From Planctomycetota bacterium (GTDB lineage: Bacteria > Planctomycetota > PLA2 > JAEUHO01): a stretch of DNA of 64,000 nt. Made by a program: the position numbers and the translations under genes. Numbering within the stretch: the first letter of the stretch is position 1; each line of letters opens with the position of its first letter. The stretch lies in the NCBI GenBank assembly GCA_965222115.1, contig CBDCTJ010000001.1, forward strand, positions 480,001 through 544,000, given 5' to 3'. The notes beneath the pieces were generated by a model, which searched no databases, was not told where the DNA came from, and worked only from the letters and a program-made list of their open reading frames with translations. Positions 13,274 to 22,297 of the stretch are shown here, in pieces.

Positions 13274-14188
13274 CTACTCAGGAACGACCAAATCCAATTC
13301 TTTGACTTCGCCGACTCCCACCACGACGCCTTCGGCGACCACGACGCCATTTTCGGCATCGGGAAGTCGCACCCAGAAATCGTAAGTGCCCGGTTCAAGC
13401 GCGACGGCGTAGGCGCCCTTGGCCGGCTCGCCTTCTTCCGTGGGCTCGCCGACACTAATCGTCGCGATGATTGGCTCAACCGACTCCTCGTCGCCGGCGT
13501 CGCGGACAGCCACTTCGGCGCCTTCGATGCCCAGCGCGCCGCTGTCCATGACAATGCCCATGACCAATGACGTCTCGGCCAAATTGATCGCACGAATCAC
13601 CGGACGAAAGATGACGCCGCCTTCGCCTGCCTTAAGCTCATTGCACGTGGGCTCACCACCGAGGCCCGTCGTATGAAAACTCTTGGTCAAGTCAACGTCG
13701 AGCAACAGTTCACTTGTTTGACCCGACGCCACAAGTAGCGGTGGGTCAATCTTGACTTTGATGCCACTACTCTGCCCGCTCGGCACCTTGAATGGCTGCG
13801 CCGGTGACCCATCGTCAAACTCAAGTTCGGCGCCATCAATCACAAGACGAACTTCGTCGTAGGCGCCTGTCGGCACTTCGATTGCTCCGAGTTGATCCGA
13901 CAAGCCGGCACGCAACTTCAACAGATCAATGCGCGTGGGCTCGTCCCCGTCCATGAGCGATAGCTCGGTCCAGCCACCTTCTTCCCCACCGCGAATATTG
14001 ACGCCCACCAAATCCACCCATGCGGCCGACACACAACCTTCGGTTGCCGGAAACGGTGCATCGGTGATGGAGAGCACCATAGTTCCGGTATCGTGACCAC
14101 CACCCCCGCTGCCACACGCGACGACGCCAAGCGAAAGTAGGCCGGCAAGCGCTAGGGCGCAAAAACGGATGGGAACTGATCGAAACAT
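13274..14188 (-). CDS. DUF4382-like lipoprotein with a C-terminal carboxypeptidase-regulatory-like domain
   Basis: Lipobox VVAC; 'LSITDAP', 'KVPSGQSSGIK', 'LLLDVDLTKSF', 'FRPVIR'. Confidence 0.75.
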   Translation of the reverse strand: MFRSVPIRFCALALAGLLSLGVVACGSGGGGHDTGTMVLSITDAPFPATEGCVSAAWVDLVGVNIRGGEEGGWTELSLMDGDEPTRIDLLKLRAGLSDQLGAIEVPTGAYDEVRLVIDGAELEFDDGSPAQPFKVPSGQSSGIKVKIDPPLLVASGQTSELLLDVDLTKSFHTTGLGGEPTCNELKAGEGGVIFRPVIRAINLAETSLVMGIVMDSGALGIEGAEVAVRDAGDEESVEPIIATISVGEPTEEGEPAKGAYAVALEPGTYDFWVRLPDAENGVVVAEGVVVGVGEVKELDLVVPE

Positions 14189-14411
14189 GAGTGCACTCCT
14201 GAAATGGGACCACCTACACAATTATCGCCTCCTCGACAGTACGATCGAGCATCTGAAGCGAAATAATGCTGATTCGGGTAGGCGTGCAGGGCGTCCTCCC
14301 AGAGAATCTTGGATGACGACTCGACTCAGTCTCAAACGCGATCTGGGGACCCGAGCCGATGTATCAGCCCTTTCCCGTGCCCGTATCCTTGGCTTTGGAG
14401 CATTTGCGTTG

Positions 14412-17381
14412 ATGAGAATCCACCTCGTCGTCCTCGTTGTAGTAGCGGCTTCCGTTCTGTTGTCGGCGCGCAGGCACGCCCAAGCGGAGCAGTACGAATC
14501 GGGATTACCCCCCGCCGGATGCTGGACCATGGAGGGTGGATCACCGGCGCGCTCGGGCGCGTCGCGCCTTCCGGGCATTCGCGATGGCGTGCTCGAGGCA
14601 TGGTCTCAAACCATCGGTGAGGACGGAGCGTCCATCGACGAAGAACCGCGAGTCTGGGACTACCGAATCTATGTGAGTGTCCGTAGCCCGAAGCACATGT
14701 CGTTGCACGTATTGGGGCTGAGCAACGGAAAACCACTGGCCGACCCGGTTACCGTCGAATCCAACCTCAAACTCGAACCCTCCGTATGGAATGACATCGT
14801 ACTGATTCGCACGGGGAGCCGATCGCTTGGTGCGTTTCGCCTCGCGGAGGGAACACTTGAAGAAATTTGGTCCGTAGAAACGGACGGCGATGTGTTTTCG
14901 CCAATGCTCATTGACGGCGACGTGTTTGCCTTGGTGGGCACCGACATCGTTTGCTGGTCGGTGAGAGACGAAAAGCAACCGCGTTGGCGCGCAAAGGGCG
15001 ACTACCGAGGTCCCTTGGCGTGTAGAGGGTACACGGTGTTGGCAAAGGTCATTGATGACCAGGGAAATCTCTACGCCGTACCACTGTATCGAGATCATCC
15101 TCTTGAGCGCAAACGTCTATTCCTTCGAACACTTTCATCGGCGGACAGGGGCCAACTCGGCAACATGGGCACCTTGGCCATTCACGACAAGCAGGTATTC
15201 GCTCACTTCCCGGTTCCCTTTCGATCCAAAGAGGACAATTCGGCACGCCACGTCATGTGGCTACGCCGTCTAGACGAATTTGGGGAACTTCAGAAGCTTG
15301 GGTGGATCGATCACATGAAGTTGCCCGTAGAAGTCGGAACGTCTTGGATCACGAGAGATCGAGACAAGCGCAATCGAGTTCAACTCATATTTTGTGAACT
15401 CGCCGAAGGCAAGACGGATGTCTACACCTCGTTCTCACTTTCTCAGGGAAAATACCACCGCAGTTACGCCACGACCCCGCGCCCATGTACCGCGGTAGAA
15501 GGCTGCGTATATTCCGGCGAGCGCGCGTTTGACCCAGTGACGCACAAGATCCTCTGGAACACGGGGAAAGACGCGCGCTTTCGTCTCGTCCCGGGACACA
15601 ACACGCTGCTTTCAGTACGCGGCCTACGACAACTTGTAGCGCTGCGATCCAAAGGCACGGCAGGCGCGCCGCTGTTTGTGGGGCCATCTAGCGTCATTGG
15701 CACCAAAGACGCCACCGAACCGGTTCGAACCCGCGGTATCGTCTACTTTGATGACGACTCGTGGCACGAGGGCGACTACGAGATTTCGCTCAATGGCGCA
15801 ACGCTCACAACCGTCACAGAGAGAAAGAAGCGCGAGAAGCGAAAACCGTTTGACGTGGGTCGTGTGCTATTTGCGTTGGACGAAAATCACGCGCTTGTGT
15901 ATGTGGCCTCGCCCATGGAGATCGAGCGACTGCTGGGGCGCTATCACTTCTATCGTCACCAAAAGGCCTACGTGAAGTTTGCGCGTGACGCGTTCCGCAC
16001 GGGTGACCCCAAGCTCATGGGCAAGTTCCTACGCGGTGCCGAGAACCGAGGCGCGACGAGGAAGGAACTCAAGTTCCCGTACAAGCAGCAACAGGCCTTG
16101 ATCAAGCGTCCCCGCAAGATCTCTGCCAAGAAAGTCAAAGCGTTGAACGACGCCGAGGCCGCGCTTCGCAAACAGGACGCCGCGATCACAGACGCTGCGA
16201 TGGTGAGCACGATCGACGATCCGCGATGGCCCATCCGGAAGATGTATTTGCGACGTCTACTGAAGCGTGACAAACCGCCCGCCAAGGCAGTTGCCATGGT
16301 TCGCGAACGCGTTCCTGCGTTCCTCATGCCCAAGGGCGAGTTCAACGCGCTTGAATGGCTCGATTTGGTCGACCAGTTTCAGCACACCACGATTCAACAG
16401 CTCAAGCCGCCCGAGGGTGAGTCGAGCGACCTTACACGCGTGGAACGAGAGTTTGGCTCGGCCCGACTGACGTGGCGCAAGGATCTCGTGGCCTTGGAGG
16501 CCAACCAGTTGCTCATTATGTCGCCCTTGGCAAAACCGGAACGCATTGCGGGCTGTCTTTCATTGGGCACGCTGGTTTGCGATGCCCTGGAACAAGTTTT
16601 TGAAAGCGGCAAAGCCGTCCGCACCGACCCATGGCCGCTCATGTTGCGCCTCTATGAGAACAAAGACGAATACATGCACGCTTGGCTTCAACCCAACACG
16701 CCAAGTTCCTACAAGAAGCGCATGGAGGATTCGGCCGGACACTTCGATCCCAGCGCGGGTATCTCTCGAATCTACTTTCCTCCCGATCGACGCGGATGGG
16801 CGAGCGTCATGGACACCTACGCCCACGAGCTAACTCATCACTGGATCGCTGAACGTTGCCCGCTGTTTCGCGACCAAGATCGAGGGCGAGTATCGGGGGG
16901 CGCCGGATATTGGATCGTTGAGGGCATCGCGGAGTTCATTGAGAGCTTTCGTTGGGATCTGGAAAACAGATCGTGGGACCCCCGCAATCCCTATTCGTTC
17001 CCGCTGGATATCGTCGGCAGCATTGACCCGGAGCATTTGTACAACTGGGACACGTTCTTCGCGATCAGCTCCACGTCGTTTTGGAAACTCGACTCGGAGA
17101 AGACTCGCTGCCACGTGCCCATGCGCTGGCGCATGGGACGCGAGTATCCGTTGGACGACACGCTCTTGTTCTACTGCCAAGCCGGCGCCACCTGTCACTA
17201 CCTCTACCAGGCCTCACCCGAACTGCGCACCGCCATGCTCAACTACGTTCGGGATCACTACACCGGAAAGCACAAACCAGGAAAGCACGACATTGAGCGC
17301 GTGTTCGGCATGTCCGCCGCCGAGCTTGGAAAACGTGTCGTGGACTACGCGCGAAGCGCCCTCAAGCCCGGCGCGAAGTAG
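14412..17381 (+). CDS. Secreted protein with a PQQ-like beta-propeller and a C-terminal HExxH gluzincin-like domain
   Basis: Signal peptide; 'WTMEGGSPARSG' and Trp-docking repeats; 'AHELTHHW...WIVEGIAEF'. Confidence 0.65.
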   Translation: MRIHLVVLVVVAASVLLSARRHAQAEQYESGLPPAGCWTMEGGSPARSGASRLPGIRDGVLEAWSQTIGEDGASIDEEPRVWDYRIYVSVRSPKHMSLHVLGLSNGKPLADPVTVESNLKLEPSVWNDIVLIRTGSRSLGAFRLAEGTLEEIWSVETDGDVFSPMLIDGDVFALVGTDIVCWSVRDEKQPRWRAKGDYRGPLACRGYTVLAKVIDDQGNLYAVPLYRDHPLERKRLFLRTLSSADRGQLGNMGTLAIHDKQVFAHFPVPFRSKEDNSARHVMWLRRLDEFGELQKLGWIDHMKLPVEVGTSWITRDRDKRNRVQLIFCELAEGKTDVYTSFSLSQGKYHRSYATTPRPCTAVEGCVYSGERAFDPVTHKILWNTGKDARFRLVPGHNTLLSVRGLRQLVALRSKGTAGAPLFVGPSSVIGTKDATEPVRTRGIVYFDDDSWHEGDYEISLNGATLTTVTERKKREKRKPFDVGRVLFALDENHALVYVASPMEIERLLGRYHFYRHQKAYVKFARDAFRTGDPKLMGKFLRGAENRGATRKELKFPYKQQQALIKRPRKISAKKVKALNDAEAALRKQDAAITDAAMVSTIDDPRWPIRKMYLRRLLKRDKPPAKAVAMVRERVPAFLMPKGEFNALEWLDLVDQFQHTTIQQLKPPEGESSDLTRVEREFGSARLTWRKDLVALEANQLLIMSPLAKPERIAGCLSLGTLVCDALEQVFESGKAVRTDPWPLMLRLYENKDEYMHAWLQPNTPSSYKKRMEDSAGHFDPSAGISRIYFPPDRRGWASVMDTYAHELTHHWIAERCPLFRDQDRGRVSGGAGYWIVEGIAEFIESFRWDLENRSWDPRNPYSFPLDIVGSIDPEHLYNWDTFFAISSTSFWKLDSEKTRCHVPMRWRMGREYPLDDTLLFYCQAGATCHYLYQASPELRTAMLNYVRDHYTGKHKPGKHDIERVFGMSAAELGKRVVDYARSALKPGAK

Positions 17382-17486
17382 TCGAGACGCCTCAATGCGC
17401 CGCCATCGCGGCCAAATCCGCCGCCTGCGAGAACTCAACGCGATCGATTACGTTTGATAGACTACAGCTTGTTGCGAGGAGACCCC

Positions 17487-18245
17487 ATGTGCTGCTTTAG
17501 TCGTCCCGTACTGTCCGTAAATAGCACCAAGATCTTTGCGAGGGCGCTGGCCAAAGGCCGCCAGCTCTTGGCCTACTCCATGCATCTTCACGCCAAGGAA
17601 GCCGTGGCGATGATTCTGCCATTGCCGGTGCCGCCGAAGTCAAAGGGCGACGCCGTGCGGTTTATCAACTTGGAGAAGTACGCCGGCTTTTTCGATGATT
17701 TGGCCAAGGGGTTTCCCGTGCCCAAATCCGATGGCTGGGGCCCGGCGGAGGGCAAGTCCAAGGGTCGTCGCCGCGAACTCAAAGTTGTGGACGTCGGGAG
17801 CTTTGAAGCCAGTTTCGTTCCCTCGGTGAAAGACTTCGATCGACTCGACGAACGTTTTCGTTTGCCGACCGATGTATGGAAGGGGCTGCCGCTCTATCGC
17901 GACTACGGCTTTGCGGTCTTCAAGCTAAAACCCGGCAAGAAGAAGATTCACCCCATGGCGTTTGATTTCCCTAACCGCACGCCGGGCAAGCTCTTCTTCC
18001 CCACGGTCCACATTCATGACGGCAAAGTCCACGAGCGGGCGCGCTTCGATCACGGGCTCTACTGTCAGCAAAATGCCAACGGCACGCTCGATCTGCTCAA
18101 CTGGCAAGAGACCCCCGATGTCGCACAGACGTTTATGGCTATGAAGAAGACCGAGGGACTCATCGCGCCCAAAGAACACGTCTACCGAAAAATCATGCGC
18201 GGCAAGCTCAAGAATCAGGACACAGTCGTAGAACTTCGGCGCTGA
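17487..18245 (+). CDS. Hypothetical protein beginning MCCFS (DUF2330-like features)
   Basis: AGGAG RBS; coding-like codon bias; 'AMILPLP', 'HPMAFDFP', 'FFPTVHIHDG'. Confidence 0.65.
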   Translation: MCCFSRPVLSVNSTKIFARALAKGRQLLAYSMHLHAKEAVAMILPLPVPPKSKGDAVRFINLEKYAGFFDDLAKGFPVPKSDGWGPAEGKSKGRRRELKVVDVGSFEASFVPSVKDFDRLDERFRLPTDVWKGLPLYRDYGFAVFKLKPGKKKIHPMAFDFPNRTPGKLFFPTVHIHDGKVHERARFDHGLYCQQNANGTLDLLNWQETPDVAQTFMAMKKTEGLIAPKEHVYRKIMRGKLKNQDTVVELRR

Positions 18246-18321
18246 CGCCAATCCGAAAATTTCGTACGATGCGCGCCGCGCTCGATCTTCGCTCGTGAGG
18301 ATCGGGCCGGGGAGTTTCATC

Positions 18322-19572
18322 GTGCGTATCGCTGCAACTGTTCTCATCCTCGCATCGACGTGTATCTATCCCAGGACCTCATCGGCCAAAGAGTCGGCGG
18401 GCGATCTGATCCAGAAGGCTAATGCGCACATGGAGGCGGGCGAACTTGACGTTGCCTCAACAACACTCGGCAAAGCGGCTGCCTTGGCTCAAAAGAAGAA
18501 GGATTTGGAGTCCGAGGTCGAGGCGGCAGAGGCGTTTGAGAAATTGCTCCGCAAGCCACGCAGAGACGCGTTCCTCGGTACGGGGATCGACAAATCGAAC
18601 AGTTCGTCATCCGATGCGCACGCAAAGTCAAACTACTCATCTCTTCTACTCAAATTCATGAAAGAGCTCGATCCCAAGCGACTGGGTGCAATCTCATCGG
18701 CCCACACATTGGCGCGTGCGATTCTTGAGCAAGCCTCGGAGACGGGCGACAACACCGGGGTCACCGAAGCTGCGCCTGTACTTCAAAGGCACCTGACAAA
18801 CAAGCACGCTGGCAAGATGGGCGAAGCGATGGCGTTCTATGGACGCGGTATGATGGCACGGACGCAAAAGGACCACGCGGCATCTCATCTCGCGCTGCGC
18901 AGAGCGCTCGACCTGGCCGTAGAATCAGGCTGGACGAGATTATCGATATTGATCGGCACGGAGGCGGCGGCGGCGGCAATCGCCTCCGGTGACAGTGAGT
19001 CTGCAAAGAAGGCCCTTGCAGACGTTGTTCCGGTCATGAAGAATCAGCACTACCAACTAACGGTGTATTGGAAGCGTGTCATCAAGCATCGTCTTCGTGG
19101 CGTTTCCGATGACGTGATGGCACCTGCGAACGCGTTCTTTGACACAGACAAGCGAAAAGGAAGCATGGTCGGCGCCCAAGGAGGCAAAGGTGGCCGCGGC
19201 GGTGCTGGTGGTGGCGCAGATTCCAGAAGCGAATTCGGCAAGGCCTACAAAAGACTAAAAAAGAAGAAGCCATTTGTCTCCGTGACACGCACGAAAGATG
19301 GCATGAGGCTTTCCGAACACTTCGGACCCAAGCGCACTCACGAACAACCATTCAACTACATGATGAAACACTGGCACGAAGATGGTGTCGCGGTTTCGTT
19401 CTTTCACCAGTTCGTATGCCTTCGCATGATCGACATGACCGGACGCCGCGGCGGACCCGGGGGAAGCAATGAAGCGTCCCACGCGTGGGCGTTCTACCCG
19501 CTGGCAATAGGCGAGACCTGGGGTGTCATGAAAGACGGCACGATCACCATCAGATCCAAGAAGCGCAGATAG
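18322..19572 (+). CDS. Secreted helical (TPR-like) hypothetical protein
   Basis: Long ORF with a signal peptide, amphipathic helices and a Gly-rich linker. Confidence 0.6.
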   Translation: MRIAATVLILASTCIYPRTSSAKESAGDLIQKANAHMEAGELDVASTTLGKAAALAQKKKDLESEVEAAEAFEKLLRKPRRDAFLGTGIDKSNSSSSDAHAKSNYSSLLLKFMKELDPKRLGAISSAHTLARAILEQASETGDNTGVTEAAPVLQRHLTNKHAGKMGEAMAFYGRGMMARTQKDHAASHLALRRALDLAVESGWTRLSILIGTEAAAAAIASGDSESAKKALADVVPVMKNQHYQLTVYWKRVIKHRLRGVSDDVMAPANAFFDTDKRKGSMVGAQGGKGGRGGAGGGADSRSEFGKAYKRLKKKKPFVSVTRTKDGMRLSEHFGPKRTHEQPFNYMMKHWHEDGVAVSFFHQFVCLRMIDMTGRRGGPGGSNEASHAWAFYPLAIGETWGVMKDGTITIRSKKRR

Positions 19573-19814: not shown

Positions 19815-19988
19815 CTTTGCTGGACCGCTAGGTCTGAGGGTTCGCATCGTCGCGCTGCCTCAGCCTGGGAGTTCAGCACGGAATTCTGCTTTCGGCTCGG
19901 CGAAACACACTGGCGAAGGCGCCAGAAGTACACTCGCCGCGATGCCCTGAAAATCAGTTTACGAGTTCGAATCGTCATGGAGTTACGA

Positions 19989-20747
19989 ATGCGCAAGACG
20001 CTCAGCCTTGGCTTGGCAGCGGTACTCGCCCTGCCCGCCCTCATGTTTGCCTTCGGCCCCACTGCAAATGCAGGCGGTGGCTGCTGAGGCTTCTCCCCCG
20101 CCGCCAACGCCGTGTTGCGTTGCAAGTGGAAGAACGCCGAGAAAGTGGCCCCCGATACCGACGTTAGCACCGGCGACACCGCCGAAGAGGCCGAAGCGAA
20201 GGCCGAGAAGAAGATGGCGCCCAAGCCCATCATGGTCTACGTCACAGACGGCGCAGACAACGCTGAGCACACCAAGATCGAGAAGGTCGTTCTCATGAAC
20301 GAAGAGATCTCGATTCTCATGAATAACTTTGACTGCCTAAAGGTCAGCCCCGAAGTGGCTAAGGACGACCCGCTCTTGAAAGAGCACGGTAAGGCCTGCC
20401 CTCGCTTCATTATCTTCAACCGCGACTACAGCAAGCCCAAGGTCTTCGAAGGCAAGTCCATGAAGACCAAGAAGGTCTTGACCGCGCTCAAGAAGGCTGC
20501 CAAGCACGCCTACAAGACCCCCATCGACAAGTACGTCAAAGAGATCCGCAAGCTCGTCAACGAGTACAACAAGATCAATGGCGCGATGAAGGTCATTGAA
20601 GGCAAGCGGAGCCGCGGCGACCTCAGCAAGAAGGACAAGAAGAAGCTTGCCGAGCTTGAGCAGGCTCAGAAAGACGCTGAAGCCAAGGAAAAGAAATTCC
20701 TCACCTATGAGCTTCGCGTGAAGGAGAAGGCCAAAGCCGAAGGCTAA
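19989..20747 (+). CDS. Candidate secreted selenoprotein (Cys32-Sec33, GCUG motif) with a thioredoxin-like fold
   Basis: GGAG RBS; signal peptide ending ANA; GGC-GGT-GGC-TGC-TGA-GGC with the TGA at 20085-20087 in frame with ORF 20112..20747; SECIS-like hairpin follows; terminator after the TAA. Confidence 0.8.
20088..20134 (+). promoter_or_regulatory. Bacterial SECIS-like hairpin
   Basis: Stem caacgc (20105-10) / gcgttg (20117-22); loop CGUGUU begins 23 nt after the UGA; possible lower stem. Confidence 0.6.
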
Positions 20748-20782
20748 ACGCCAACCACCTTCTAGCTACGCAACCAATCTAG

Positions 20783-20815
20783 ACGCGGCGAGCCTTCGGG
20801 CTCGCCGCGTTTTTT
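20783..20815 (+). terminator. Rho-independent terminator
   Basis: acgcggcgagcc-ttcg-ggctcgccgcgt followed by a T tract. Confidence 0.92.
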
Positions 20816-20950: not shown

Positions 20951-22297
20951 TCAACGCAGCGATTGCAATGCGTCTTCCCAAGCGACGGGATCTTCGCCAA
21001 TGCCGTTAAGGCGCGTCTGGGTCTGGAGCGCTTTGGCAAGCGTTGATCGAAGCCGCGACCCGGACTTAGAACGCTTCAAGGCTCGAAGTAGACCTGACAC
21101 ACTTCCGGCCACAACATACGCTTCAAAGTACGCCGCAATGGCCAACTCGTTGCCATTCGCATCTTCAAGAAGCTTGATGAATTGAGGTCCCGCATCCCAT
21201 TGGTGATCAGAGAGTGCCGCTACGGCCGCTGTGGACACGTGGGGACTCGAATCGGCAACCAACGTCAGCAACCGCTGTCGCCCGGGCTTGTCCTGCACTG
21301 GGGCGATGACGCCAATCGCGGCCACCCGCACACGTACCGGAGCCTTGCCATCAAAGGCTACGCTCGCTGCATGGGCAACGCCTTCGGGGCGCGAGCGCAA
21401 TGCCCAGAGCGCAGCACGGCGCACGTTACGCTCGGGATGGGTAACGTTTACCGGTTCACCGCTCAACAGTTCAAGCAACGCGGCGCTTGCGCTATCCCCC
21501 AAGAACTCATAAGCGCGAGTTACAATCGACGCACGCTCGAGTCCCGTGATTTGAGGTGAAGCTTCACCACGGATGGCTGCCAACACACGCGCCTTTCGCT
21601 CCTCCGCTCGCGTCGACTTCGGCATCCATCGCTTTCGCAAGGGAGTCTTGAATACGGATTTGGCAGCAAGCTTGGCGTCCACCGCCTCCCGCGACACGAC
21701 TTGAATCGCGCCGTCTGCGACTCGAACAACGGTGAGGGGTTGCGCGTGCCCATTCGAAACAACAACGAGTAGACCTGCTTTGACCTCGATGCGCCTGACT
21801 TGCCACGGCGTGGTGTACCCGACGGGCATGACGGCAGGCCGTGGAGGTTGCGGCAACACAATCGACACTTGCGGCCCATCTACGGGAACCCAATTGAGAA
21901 GCGTAACTAACTCGCCGCGCGGATAGCCCGGCGGGCCATAGTCCTGGGTAATCGCGGCAAAGCCCGAACCGTCTGACGCCGGAAGAAAGTCAATCGGATA
22001 CCCTCCGATACGCGCGCGTGCCACCACACGATCCCCGCGACGAATCGGGTTTATTCCTGGCACACCATGTCTACCCTGCCCAACATCTCGGAGTACCGAC
22101 AACGCCTTTGAATCTCGCGCACACGCCACCAATGCACACCGATCACTTAGTGCCTCTACGGTTACGTACCACCGCCCGGTTGCATCCACGCGTCGCTTAG
22201 CGCCTGGAAAAGCGGGGGTCGCGTTGGATAACGGCGCCAACCCGACCGCAAGGAGCAACAAGGCAAGGACCCGGAGTACGAAGGCCATAACCTTCAT
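20951..22297 (-). CDS. Secreted protein with C-terminal HEAT-like repeats
   Basis: Signal peptide; 'VRRAALWAL', 'VRVAAIGVI', 'VSTAAVAAL'; ends '...GEDPVAW'. Confidence 0.6.
   Translation of the reverse strand: MKVMAFVLRVLALLLLAVGLAPLSNATPAFPGAKRRVDATGRWYVTVEALSDRCALVACARDSKALSVLRDVGQGRHGVPGINPIRRGDRVVARARIGGYPIDFLPASDGSGFAAITQDYGPPGYPRGELVTLLNWVPVDGPQVSIVLPQPPRPAVMPVGYTTPWQVRRIEVKAGLLVVVSNGHAQPLTVVRVADGAIQVVSREAVDAKLAAKSVFKTPLRKRWMPKSTRAEERKARVLAAIRGEASPQITGLERASIVTRAYEFLGDSASAALLELLSGEPVNVTHPERNVRRAALWALRSRPEGVAHAASVAFDGKAPVRVRVAAIGVIAPVQDKPGRQRLLTLVADSSPHVSTAAVAALSDHQWDAGPQFIKLLEDANGNELAIAAYFEAYVVAGSVSGLLRALKRSKSGSRLRSTLAKALQTQTRLNGIGEDPVAWEDALQSLR

Follow-up and report, generated by a model that had tools for sequence, protein, structure and literature searches.

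The subject of this analysis is a gene at positions 19989-20747 (plus strand) of a 64,000-nucleotide stretch of a Planctomycetota genome (GenBank assembly GCA_965222115.1, contig CBDCTJ010000001.1, positions 480,001 to 544,000), which is referred to here as the window. Its whole reading frame amounts to 252 residues if an in-frame TGA at codon 33 is counted as selenocysteine (Sec, U). As judged from the comparison of sequences, the gene very probably encodes a true selenoprotein. The initial annotation of this DNA had proposed a 252-residue exported selenoprotein, and the proposal is supported by a TGA that is kept in 56 of 58 genes of the family, by a covarying hairpin behind it and by Sec genes in the genome. 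The features of the locus, including a stem-loop resembling a selenocysteine insertion sequence (SECIS), are as follows; A2 denotes an alignment of 25 family sequences, which was used for the invariant columns and for AlphaFold2, and pLDDT the predicted local distance difference test score.

19979..19982, plus strand: Shine-Dalgarno-like GGAG, read directly, 6 nucleotides before the start codon
19989..20072, plus strand: start codon and 28-codon signal peptide (MRK, hydrophobic core, end in PTANA)
20073..20084, plus strand: Gly-Gly-Gly-Cys, the predicted mature N-terminus; Cys32, invariant in A2, is the vicinal partner of Sec
20085..20087, plus strand: in-frame TGA, very probably read as Sec, residue 33 (TGA in 56/58 family genes; Sec machinery; unchanged in the contigs of four runs)
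20088..20138, plus strand: SECIS-like stem-loop (folding, control windows, covariation), with the apical hairpin at 20105-20122 and the loop CGUGUU at 20111-20116
20097..20135, plus strand: predicted arm helix (residues 37-43) and first thioredoxin-fold strand (47-49), with invariant L43 and W47 (AlphaFold2, A2)
20136..20225, plus strand: acidic low-confidence linker, residues 50-79 (pLDDT 49-79; poorly conserved in A2)
20226..20516, plus strand: predicted thioredoxin-fold core, residues 80-176, without CxxC at the canonical site (TDGADNAEH) (AlphaFold2, structure searches)
20523..20699, plus strand: predicted Lys/Glu-rich helical hairpin, helices 179-208 and 214-237 (AlphaFold2)
20745..20747, plus strand: TAA stop codon, read directly
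20781..20815, plus strand: intrinsic terminator with GC-rich stem, UUCG loop and U-run (folding)

The frame starts at ATG 19989, with a second possible in-frame ATG upstream at 19977, and its signal peptide, MRKTLSLGLAAVLALPALMFAFGPTANA, is followed by GGGC, the TGA and then GFSPAANAVLRCKWK.... This is the order described by the initial annotation (ribosome-binding site, ATG 19989, a 28-residue signal peptide and GGGC-TGA), and the GGAG listed above supplies the ribosome-binding site. Reading of the sequence equally confirmed that the TGA shares its frame with a downstream open reading frame (ORF) of 211 residues, 20112-20747, listed from GTG 20112, which has neither a ribosome-binding site nor a signal peptide of its own. 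With regard to the strong codon bias noticed on both sides of the TGA, the GC content at third codon positions is 0.72 before and 0.82 after it, as compared to 0.60 in the intergenic spacer upstream of the gene. The single terminator that had been claimed was found as a 14-bp stem of -29.1 kcal/mol (z -5.9, 0/200 shuffles as good); a consensus promoter and terminator scan detected no promoter-like site and missed this terminator, which was seen by folding. With its own ribosome-binding site and terminator, the gene looks monocistronic. The stretch including the TGA is identical in the contigs of four public runs, which stem from two samples of one study and are possibly the source of the assembly, so that the TGA noted at the outset is unchanged in these contigs. 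The arrangement goes beyond chance because it is conserved as a whole in related genomes.

Conservation of the TGA and distribution of the family

A six-frame search of genomes of the same order with the read-through protein found a match in 39 of 40 genomes and in 24 of 24 genera, and nearly every strong match in the order spans exactly one TGA. Among the loci fetched from the order, a signal-peptide frame precedes the TGA in 30/30, with RSxASMAVLxIxW after it. A profile search across the phylum detected the family in 85 of 401 Planctomycetota genomes. Many of the weaker matches in this search were listed without a stop because their alignments begin after the Sec position; 20 regions with such stop-free matches were fetched, and the 26 family genes inside them, which belong to other families of the phylum, possess a TGA right after the signal peptide in 24 cases. 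In total, an in-frame TGA lies 0-4 residues past the signal peptide in 56 of the 58 family genes examined, and the n-h-c layout of the signal peptide is kept in all 56 Sec-type relatives. Both TGA-less genes come from one genome and read QCGGCCKSGGC and GWCGGG, the latter with TGG at the site. Conservation extends to both sides of the TGA, a property named in the initial annotation as support for read-through: the invariant columns of A2 are M1, C32, U33, G34, L43, W47, F114 and Y175, and no residue capable of redox chemistry is conserved in it apart from Sec and the partner Cys.

The motif around Sec varies within the family. The arm types (n=56) are C-U in 25 genes, U-C in 19, U-x(3-5)-C in 8, U alone, i.e., without Cys within 8 residues of Sec, in 2, and U-G-U and U-U in 1 each. 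At the level of taxonomic families, G-C-U-G is characteristic of the window's own family (f1) and G-U-C-G of the second family of the order (f2). Hence, the Gly-Cys-Sec-Gly motif that had been highlighted for the window protein is indeed present there, and it is one of several forms in the family as a whole. The number of paralogues per genome ranges from 1 to 5, and the expansion covers a good part of Planctomycetota. A nucleotide-locus search with a six-sequence alignment returned 7 related loci, all in Planctomycetota metagenome-assembled genomes, and the same search with the single window protein found nothing. The window genome itself has two tandem paralogues on the minus strand (C1:455029-455778 and 455947-456744), about 25 kb before the first base of the window; both are of the U-C type, one reading AAEAG-U-CNGRSSASLAAL and the other AAEAG-U-CPGGGGGGRS with a Gly-rich tether. 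The two double-Sec forms were seen in single loci, namely tandem TGA TGA giving VYG-U-U-RGSSAS (L048, G031:C7) and TGA-GGC-TGA giving ATAG-U-G-U-GRSSAS (L030, G023:C122).

The stem-loop behind the TGA

A hairpin with its loop 23 nucleotides past the UGA had been pointed out in the initial annotation, and it was recovered at this place: CAACGC at 20105-20110, the loop CGUGUU at 20111-20116 and GCGUUG at 20117-20122. It caps the longer stem-loop 20088-20138, for which folding gave -20.4 kcal/mol (z -2.0, 9/200 shuffles as good). In the family, the median energy of the best perfect hairpin in the 57 nucleotides past the UGA is -9.4 kcal/mol, compared with a mean of -4.65 kcal/mol elsewhere in the same genes; control windows matched the post-UGA hairpin in 195 of 1777 cases, and in 31 of 56 genes no control was as good. 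G is present in the loop of all 56 post-UGA hairpins, frequently within GU, GGU or GGUC.

Covariation was evaluated in 29 of 54 genes chosen for the core CCAGUNUGG, a choice by which the three inner pairs are fixed. Outside these, pair 6-18 occurs as GC 11, CG 9, AU 1, UA 1, GU 1, UG 1 and other 1, and pair 5-19 as CG 13, GC 7 and other 5. The covariation score was 0.290 as compared to 0.116 for shuffled alignments, none of 500 of which reached 0.290, and partners slid along the sequence gave at most 0.131. Taken together with its position directly 3' of the UGA, the covariation in relatives supports a SECIS-like element. In the relatives nearest to the window gene, the hairpin lies about 8 nucleotides further downstream and differs in sequence (CGGUGAG-GGUC-CUCACCG). 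In most relatives, the AUG that gene callers use for shortened MAVL... proteins is situated inside the SECIS loop (e.g., L013:1591-1613; CCAGUAUGG).

Selenocysteine machinery and genetic code

The window genome possesses selA (416 bits), a SelB wing domain (53.9 bits) and one tRNA-Sec. Of the selABCD set whose presence had been raised as a check on the proposal, selA, selB and the tRNA were thus found, while selD was found in fragmentary form: the only match (G000:C1:654443-655201, L033) passes the cut-off with 150.6 bits and lies at the very end of contig C1, and therefore the Sec pathway is not seen to be complete in this assembly. Either an assembly fault or a decayed gene may account for the broken selD. 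Among the relatives with a selD match, the gene is intact and read through a single TGA in 18 of 19, and selD is therefore itself a selenoprotein gene. Across the phylum, selA was present in 83 of 85 family-positive genomes and in 221 of 316 others, in a cross-tabulation made by hand in which related genomes are not independent; the two family-positive genomes without selA are 90-92% complete and consist of 340 and 410 contigs. Genome-wide reassignment of TGA was considered and rejected, as TGA is an ordinary stop in the window genome, where it ends 414 of 1514 frames of at least 400 codons.

Export, mature N-terminus and fold

An AxA-like site is located 0-4 residues before the first Cys or Sec in 47 of the 56 Sec forms, and a classic lipobox is found in none of them, so that cleavage by signal peptidase I is expected. 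The mature protein is accordingly predicted, from these sequence patterns, to begin 1-4 residues before Sec.

AlphaFold2 on alignment A2 yielded a model with a mean pLDDT of 85 and a predicted template modelling score of 0.77, with low confidence for the signal peptide and for residues 50-79. The confident elements are helix 37-43, strand 47-49, a beta-alpha-beta-alpha-beta-beta-alpha core at 81-174 and the long helices 179-208 and 214-237. Structural alignment with VIA-align matched the model to DsbD-gamma (2fwf; Z 10.6, root-mean-square deviation (rmsd) 2.7, 107 residues), to an exported cytochrome c biogenesis-related domain (3f9u; Z 10.4-10.5) and to many thioredoxins (Z ~10); these matches cover model residues 44-176, both in the Foldseek-led rescoring and in a Foldseek-independent search. 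The top 50 of Foldseek against PDB are mostly thioredoxin-fold entries, with ERp19 as the best (E 1.9e-3). No Cys is present at the canonical CxxC site after strand 81-85 (TDGADNAEH in the window protein) in any of the 25 sequences of A2. Hence, the model and the structure searches support a thioredoxin-like fold without CxxC, as the initial annotation had suspected, followed by a charged helical hairpin. A profile search against PDB sequences returned only weak matches to AGR2/AGR3 (E 0.08-0.17), and the Pfam scan of the window protein and the 25 members found no Pyr_redox domain. No NCBIfam family matched the window protein at E <= 0.01, and NCBIfam release 20.0 (June 2026), where the curated selenoprotein models are kept, assigned no selenoprotein family to the 25 members, two of which had one unrelated weak match each.

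Cysteine homologues and database annotation

An exhaustive profile search of 1.84 billion representatives detected 560 clusters (50% identity) at E <= 0.001, 315 at 1e-10 and 68 at 1e-30. Apart from the window's own, 50 of the best 149 representatives start just past the Sec position. Of 14 database homologues of the window protein, 13 start downstream of the Sec position, which agrees with the earlier statement that standard annotation would miss the gene; the 14th alone carries a source's name, 'hypothetical protein'. All Sec-form database entries examined are cut at the TGA. The Sec-form entries look cytoplasmic and inert because the signal peptide and the reactive residue have been lost. 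Two observations had been named beforehand as speaking against the proposal, homologues that start downstream of the TGA and homologues with Trp at the site. The former were indeed seen, but the downstream starts are an artefact of gene calling, and the latter applies to 1 of 58 genes.

Cys occurs at or beside the Sec position in some homologues, an outcome that had also been mentioned as favourable to the proposal (P0020, P0021, P0033, P0041, P0056, P0060, P0069, P0072, P0151 and L037). The full-length Cys homologues have the arm motifs GCGCCGRS, AGCCCGRS, GCACCSRS, CSSC, CEHC, CKGC or a single Cys, and a more distant branch retains the signal peptide and has neither Cys nor Sec. A subgroup of a few distant members (representatives P0070, P0080, P0088) possesses a Cys-rich, CDGKCGGAC-like insert at the canonical thioredoxin active site that is absent from the window protein. 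Moreover, the family domain occurs in larger proteins (representatives P0099 and P0126): in one of 1598 residues together with a protein kinase domain, Glucodextran_B and two FGE-sulfatase domains, and in one of 785 residues with HEAT repeats.

Proposed mechanism and alternative explanations

We propose that SelB and tRNA-Sec decode the UGA at 20085-20087 as selenocysteine, steered by the stem-loop directly 3' of it. The product would then be exported, signal peptidase I would remove the 28-residue signal peptide and the periplasmic mature protein would start with GGG-C-U-G. Following this, a vicinal Cys-Sec pair would stand at the N-terminus, joined by a short helix to a thioredoxin-fold domain whose own CxxC has been lost. 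The selenolate of the arm would be the reactive centre and would attack an oxidised substrate (disulfide, peroxide or sulfenate), and the neighbouring Cys would resolve the adduct as a selenenylsulfide in the manner of the GCUG end of mammalian thioredoxin reductase, while the thioredoxin-like body would dock a partner or substrate and perform no chemistry of its own. In this scheme, the cleavage site, the incorporation of selenium, the redox chemistry, the substrate and the reductant are what we infer. A periplasmic redox role with the chemistry on the arm and a body that binds the partner or substrate is a proposition to which we attach equal measures of confidence and doubt. It is favoured because a Cys beside or near Sec can close a selenenylsulfide and because the CxxC arms of the Cys homologues fit a dithiol/disulfide couple. 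The initial suggestion that redox or metal-binding activity may have moved from the fold to the arm is strengthened because Cys homologues carry CxxC, CC or CCC on the same arm.

Several observations weigh against this interpretation. In 2 of the 56 Sec forms no Cys is present within 8 residues, and a selenenylsulfide thus cannot be universal. One of the 58 genes encodes Trp (TGG) at the site and one a Cys cluster instead. The window's own hairpin is modest (z -2.0), and an Rfam scan at E <= 10 assigned no family to 19900-20300. Stops (5 TGA and 1 TAA) interrupt the selD match, which lies where contig C1 ends. With regard to the fold, Foldseek against PDB gave no match at E <= 0.001, Pfam Thioredoxin_7 reached E 0.18 and 12.4 bits for the window protein, below its 27-bit cut-off, and Pfam thioredoxin or selenoprotein models matched none of the 25 members at E <= 0.01. 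Furthermore, one genus group of A2 lacks the cis-Pro of the thioredoxin groove (RYF, not PRF), which weakens the idea of docking. Finally, no partner, of redox function or other, recurs among 149 ORFs around 20 diverse family genes.

The main rival explanation is that the protein is an exported selenoprotein in which the N-terminal Cys-Sec or Sec on a Gly-rich tether serves to bind soft metals and metalloids, e.g., Cu(I), Hg(II), Ag or As, and which would thus be a periplasmic chaperone or scavenger and no redox catalyst. Many paralogues in which U or U-C tips a long Gly-rich tether (UCGGGGGG..., UGGGGGG...) would suit such a role, as would the 2 of 56 Sec forms without a partner Cys and the Cys clusters of homologues, e.g., CGCC, CCC and QCGGCCKSGGC. 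Among the CU-motif selenoproteins, SaoL, HgcA, MbdU and CopZ-family forms are named metal-binding or organometallic in Table 1 of PMC13188914, and a YbjQ_1 'putative heavy-metal-binding' gene is located near family genes in one locus. On the other hand, no gene for a metal transporter, an efflux pump or a regulator recurs among the 149 neighbouring ORFs of 20 loci, motifs rich in His or Met are absent beside the arm in A2, and the CxxC arms of the Cys homologues suit redox chemistry equally well. On balance, metal binding appears less probable than the redox role.

It is much less probable that the UGA serves mainly as a selenium-dependent gate, where the exported protein would be made with Sec-tRNA, whereas translation in its absence would stop after 32 residues and possibly restart at an AUG or GUG in or after the hairpin to give a leaderless cytoplasmic form. 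The early position of the Sec codon, at which a failed read costs only a signal peptide, would fit such a gate, and in most relatives gene callers choose the AUG that encodes the Met of ASMAVL, located within the hairpin loop some 20 nucleotides past the UGA, in line with the 50 of the best 149 database representatives that start just past the Sec position. However, this AUG is accounted for by the hairpin sequence itself (CCAGUAUGG), the window gene has no AUG there and only GUG 20112 without a preceding Shine-Dalgarno sequence, and the conserved signal peptide together with the Cys beside Sec points to selection for the full-length product.

Slightly less credible still is that the gene does not encode a selenoprotein, the TGA being either a true stop between a small ORF and the 211-residue gene or subject to near-cognate Trp or Cys read-through. 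The placement of homologue starts downstream of the TGA in public annotation, the TGG at the site in one relative and the fragmentary selD of the window assembly could be taken in this sense. They are set against the 211-residue ORF without a ribosome-binding site or signal peptide of its own, conservation that spans the TGA in 56 of 58 genes, a covarying hairpin, selA in 83 of 85 family-positive genomes and a selD that is itself read through one TGA in 18 of 19 relatives with a match.

The least probable alternative, in which signal peptidase II would act and the first Cys or Sec of the mature protein would be acylated, anchoring the protein in the membrane by its N-terminus, was rejected on a pattern test, since the classic lipobox [LVI][ASTVI][GAS]C fits 0/56, although a relaxed lipobox-like pattern after PROSITE fits 24/56; moreover, Asp or Glu is often present at -3 or -4 (AEAG-U, ADAG-U) and the spacing from the AxA-like site to the first Cys or Sec varies between 0 and 4 residues.

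Relation to known systems

Mammalian thioredoxin reductase has a C-terminal Gly-Cys-Sec-Gly redox centre that closes as a selenenylsulfide. The window protein resembles it in having a Gly-flanked vicinal Cys-Sec on a flexible terminal arm, with GCUG itself present, but differs in that the motif stands at the mature N-terminus instead of the penultimate C-terminal position, that there is no flavin/NADPH domain, that the protein is exported and that the SECIS lies within the coding region; moreover, the motif varies in the family, with C-U in only 25 of 56. Among proteins of known structure, the exported DsbD-gamma (PDB 2fwf, 1vrs_D) and 3f9u are the best structural matches (Z 10.2-10.6, rmsd 2.6-2.9, 103-112 residues) with an identity of 12-15%; unlike them, the window protein lacks the canonical CxxC and adds the N-terminal Sec arm and the C-terminal helical hairpin. 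YbbN/CnoX-type proteins (PDB 3qdn, 3qou) similarly consist of a degenerate thioredoxin domain followed by helices (3qdn_A, Z 9.2), but they are cytoplasmic, have tetratricopeptide-repeat helices rather than a two-helix hairpin and contain no Sec, and no sequence similarity between them and the window protein was found. The combination of a thioredoxin fold and selenocysteine is shared with Trx UxxC, Trx7/PDZ CxxU (NF041199) and VPGUxxT (NF041383). There, Sec takes the place of one Cys of the CxxC where the active-site helix starts, whereas in the window protein this site is empty and Sec is located about 50 residues upstream on the arm.

The vicinal Cys-Sec dipeptide is shared with the CU-motif selenoproteins SaoL, SaoC, HgcA, MbdU, KCU-star and CopZ-family form 2 of Table 1 in PMC13188914. 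Their NCBIfam and Pfam models match 0/25 family members, folds and contexts differ, and none of them is listed there with Sec after a signal peptide. The review PMC13188914 (May 2026) catalogues 119 families and subfamilies of prokaryotic selenoproteins along with their domain identifiers from Pfam, NCBIfam or elsewhere, and the family members matched no model of a catalogued selenoprotein family; its Table 1 contains no thioredoxin-like protein with Sec after a signal peptide, and the terms Planctomycet, signal peptide, secreted and periplasm are absent from its text. Term searches of the deep-Sep and BSepDB papers (PMC12013277, PMC13326102) likewise gave 0 occurrences of Planctomycet or signal peptide, and the matched passages of PMC4807772 concern FdhA, FmdB and Sec genes. 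In the accessible literature on selenoproteins of Planctomycetes/Planctomycetota the family was not found, while subscription papers or table S9 of PMC4807772 could still hold a member.

Taken all together, the genes apparently constitute a new, undescribed, large selenoprotein family of Planctomycetota, in which the decoding itself is standard. What is new here is Sec at the mature N-terminus outside the active site of the fold, together with the preponderance of Sec-type over Cys-type genes in the sample and the existence of U-U and U-G-U arms. In bacterial selenoprotein families, Cys forms usually outnumber Sec forms; the sample shows the reverse, with 56/58 genes in the Sec form. It is conceivable, and we put it forward tentatively, that the family represents a new architectural class, a 'tethered selenol', in which Sec, the sole conserved reactive group, would be carried at the N-terminal tip of the mature exported protein by a Gly-rich tether, short in some members and long in others, and not by a folded active site, with Sec forms dominant, the family expanded and its synthesis selenium-gated. 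Under such an arrangement the synthesis of the whole protein would be gated by selenium supply because the UGA comes first, and there would be a selenium-dependent periplasmic redox or metal-handling layer wholly missed by current annotation. This placement of Sec may be regarded as a natural mirror image of the GCUG arm of thioredoxin reductase, and the family points to selenium-dependent chemistry in the planctomycete periplasm. Additionally, its compact natural cassette of signal peptide, Sec and SECIS could serve the production of exported selenoproteins.

Gene neighbourhood

In a Pfam scan, the five neighbours of the gene in the window were either without a significant family or gave weak HEAT and CarboxypepD_reg matches only. 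Upstream, three consecutive ORFs at 14169-19572 on the plus strand (1070, 263 and 425 residues) have no Pfam family at E <= 0.001, and the downstream neighbour at 20951-22297 on the minus strand shows a weak HEAT_2 match. Relatives of the window neighbours were not found beside the family gene in other loci, and synteny within one genus is limited to a GNAT gene, an ABC permease and a CitMHS transporter.

Local patterns occur in some loci. In three genera of family f24 (L064, L066, L067), a family gene of the U-GGGR-C type shares its strand with adjoining genes for lipoyl synthase and for either 2-oxoacid dehydrogenase E1 alpha/beta or dihydrolipoamide dehydrogenase. Such neighbours are unexpected for an exported protein, and the arrangement may reflect nothing more than inherited synteny. 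In L070 (G071:C6:656900-666600), selA (PF03841, E 1.7e-125) is located directly downstream of two tandem family genes on the same strand, and the YbjQ_1 gene mentioned above is nearby. A DsrE-like ORF was seen in one genome and a di-haem cytochrome c peroxidase, at a distance of 2 kb, likewise in one. A LysR regulator is situated near a family gene in two genomes of family f2.

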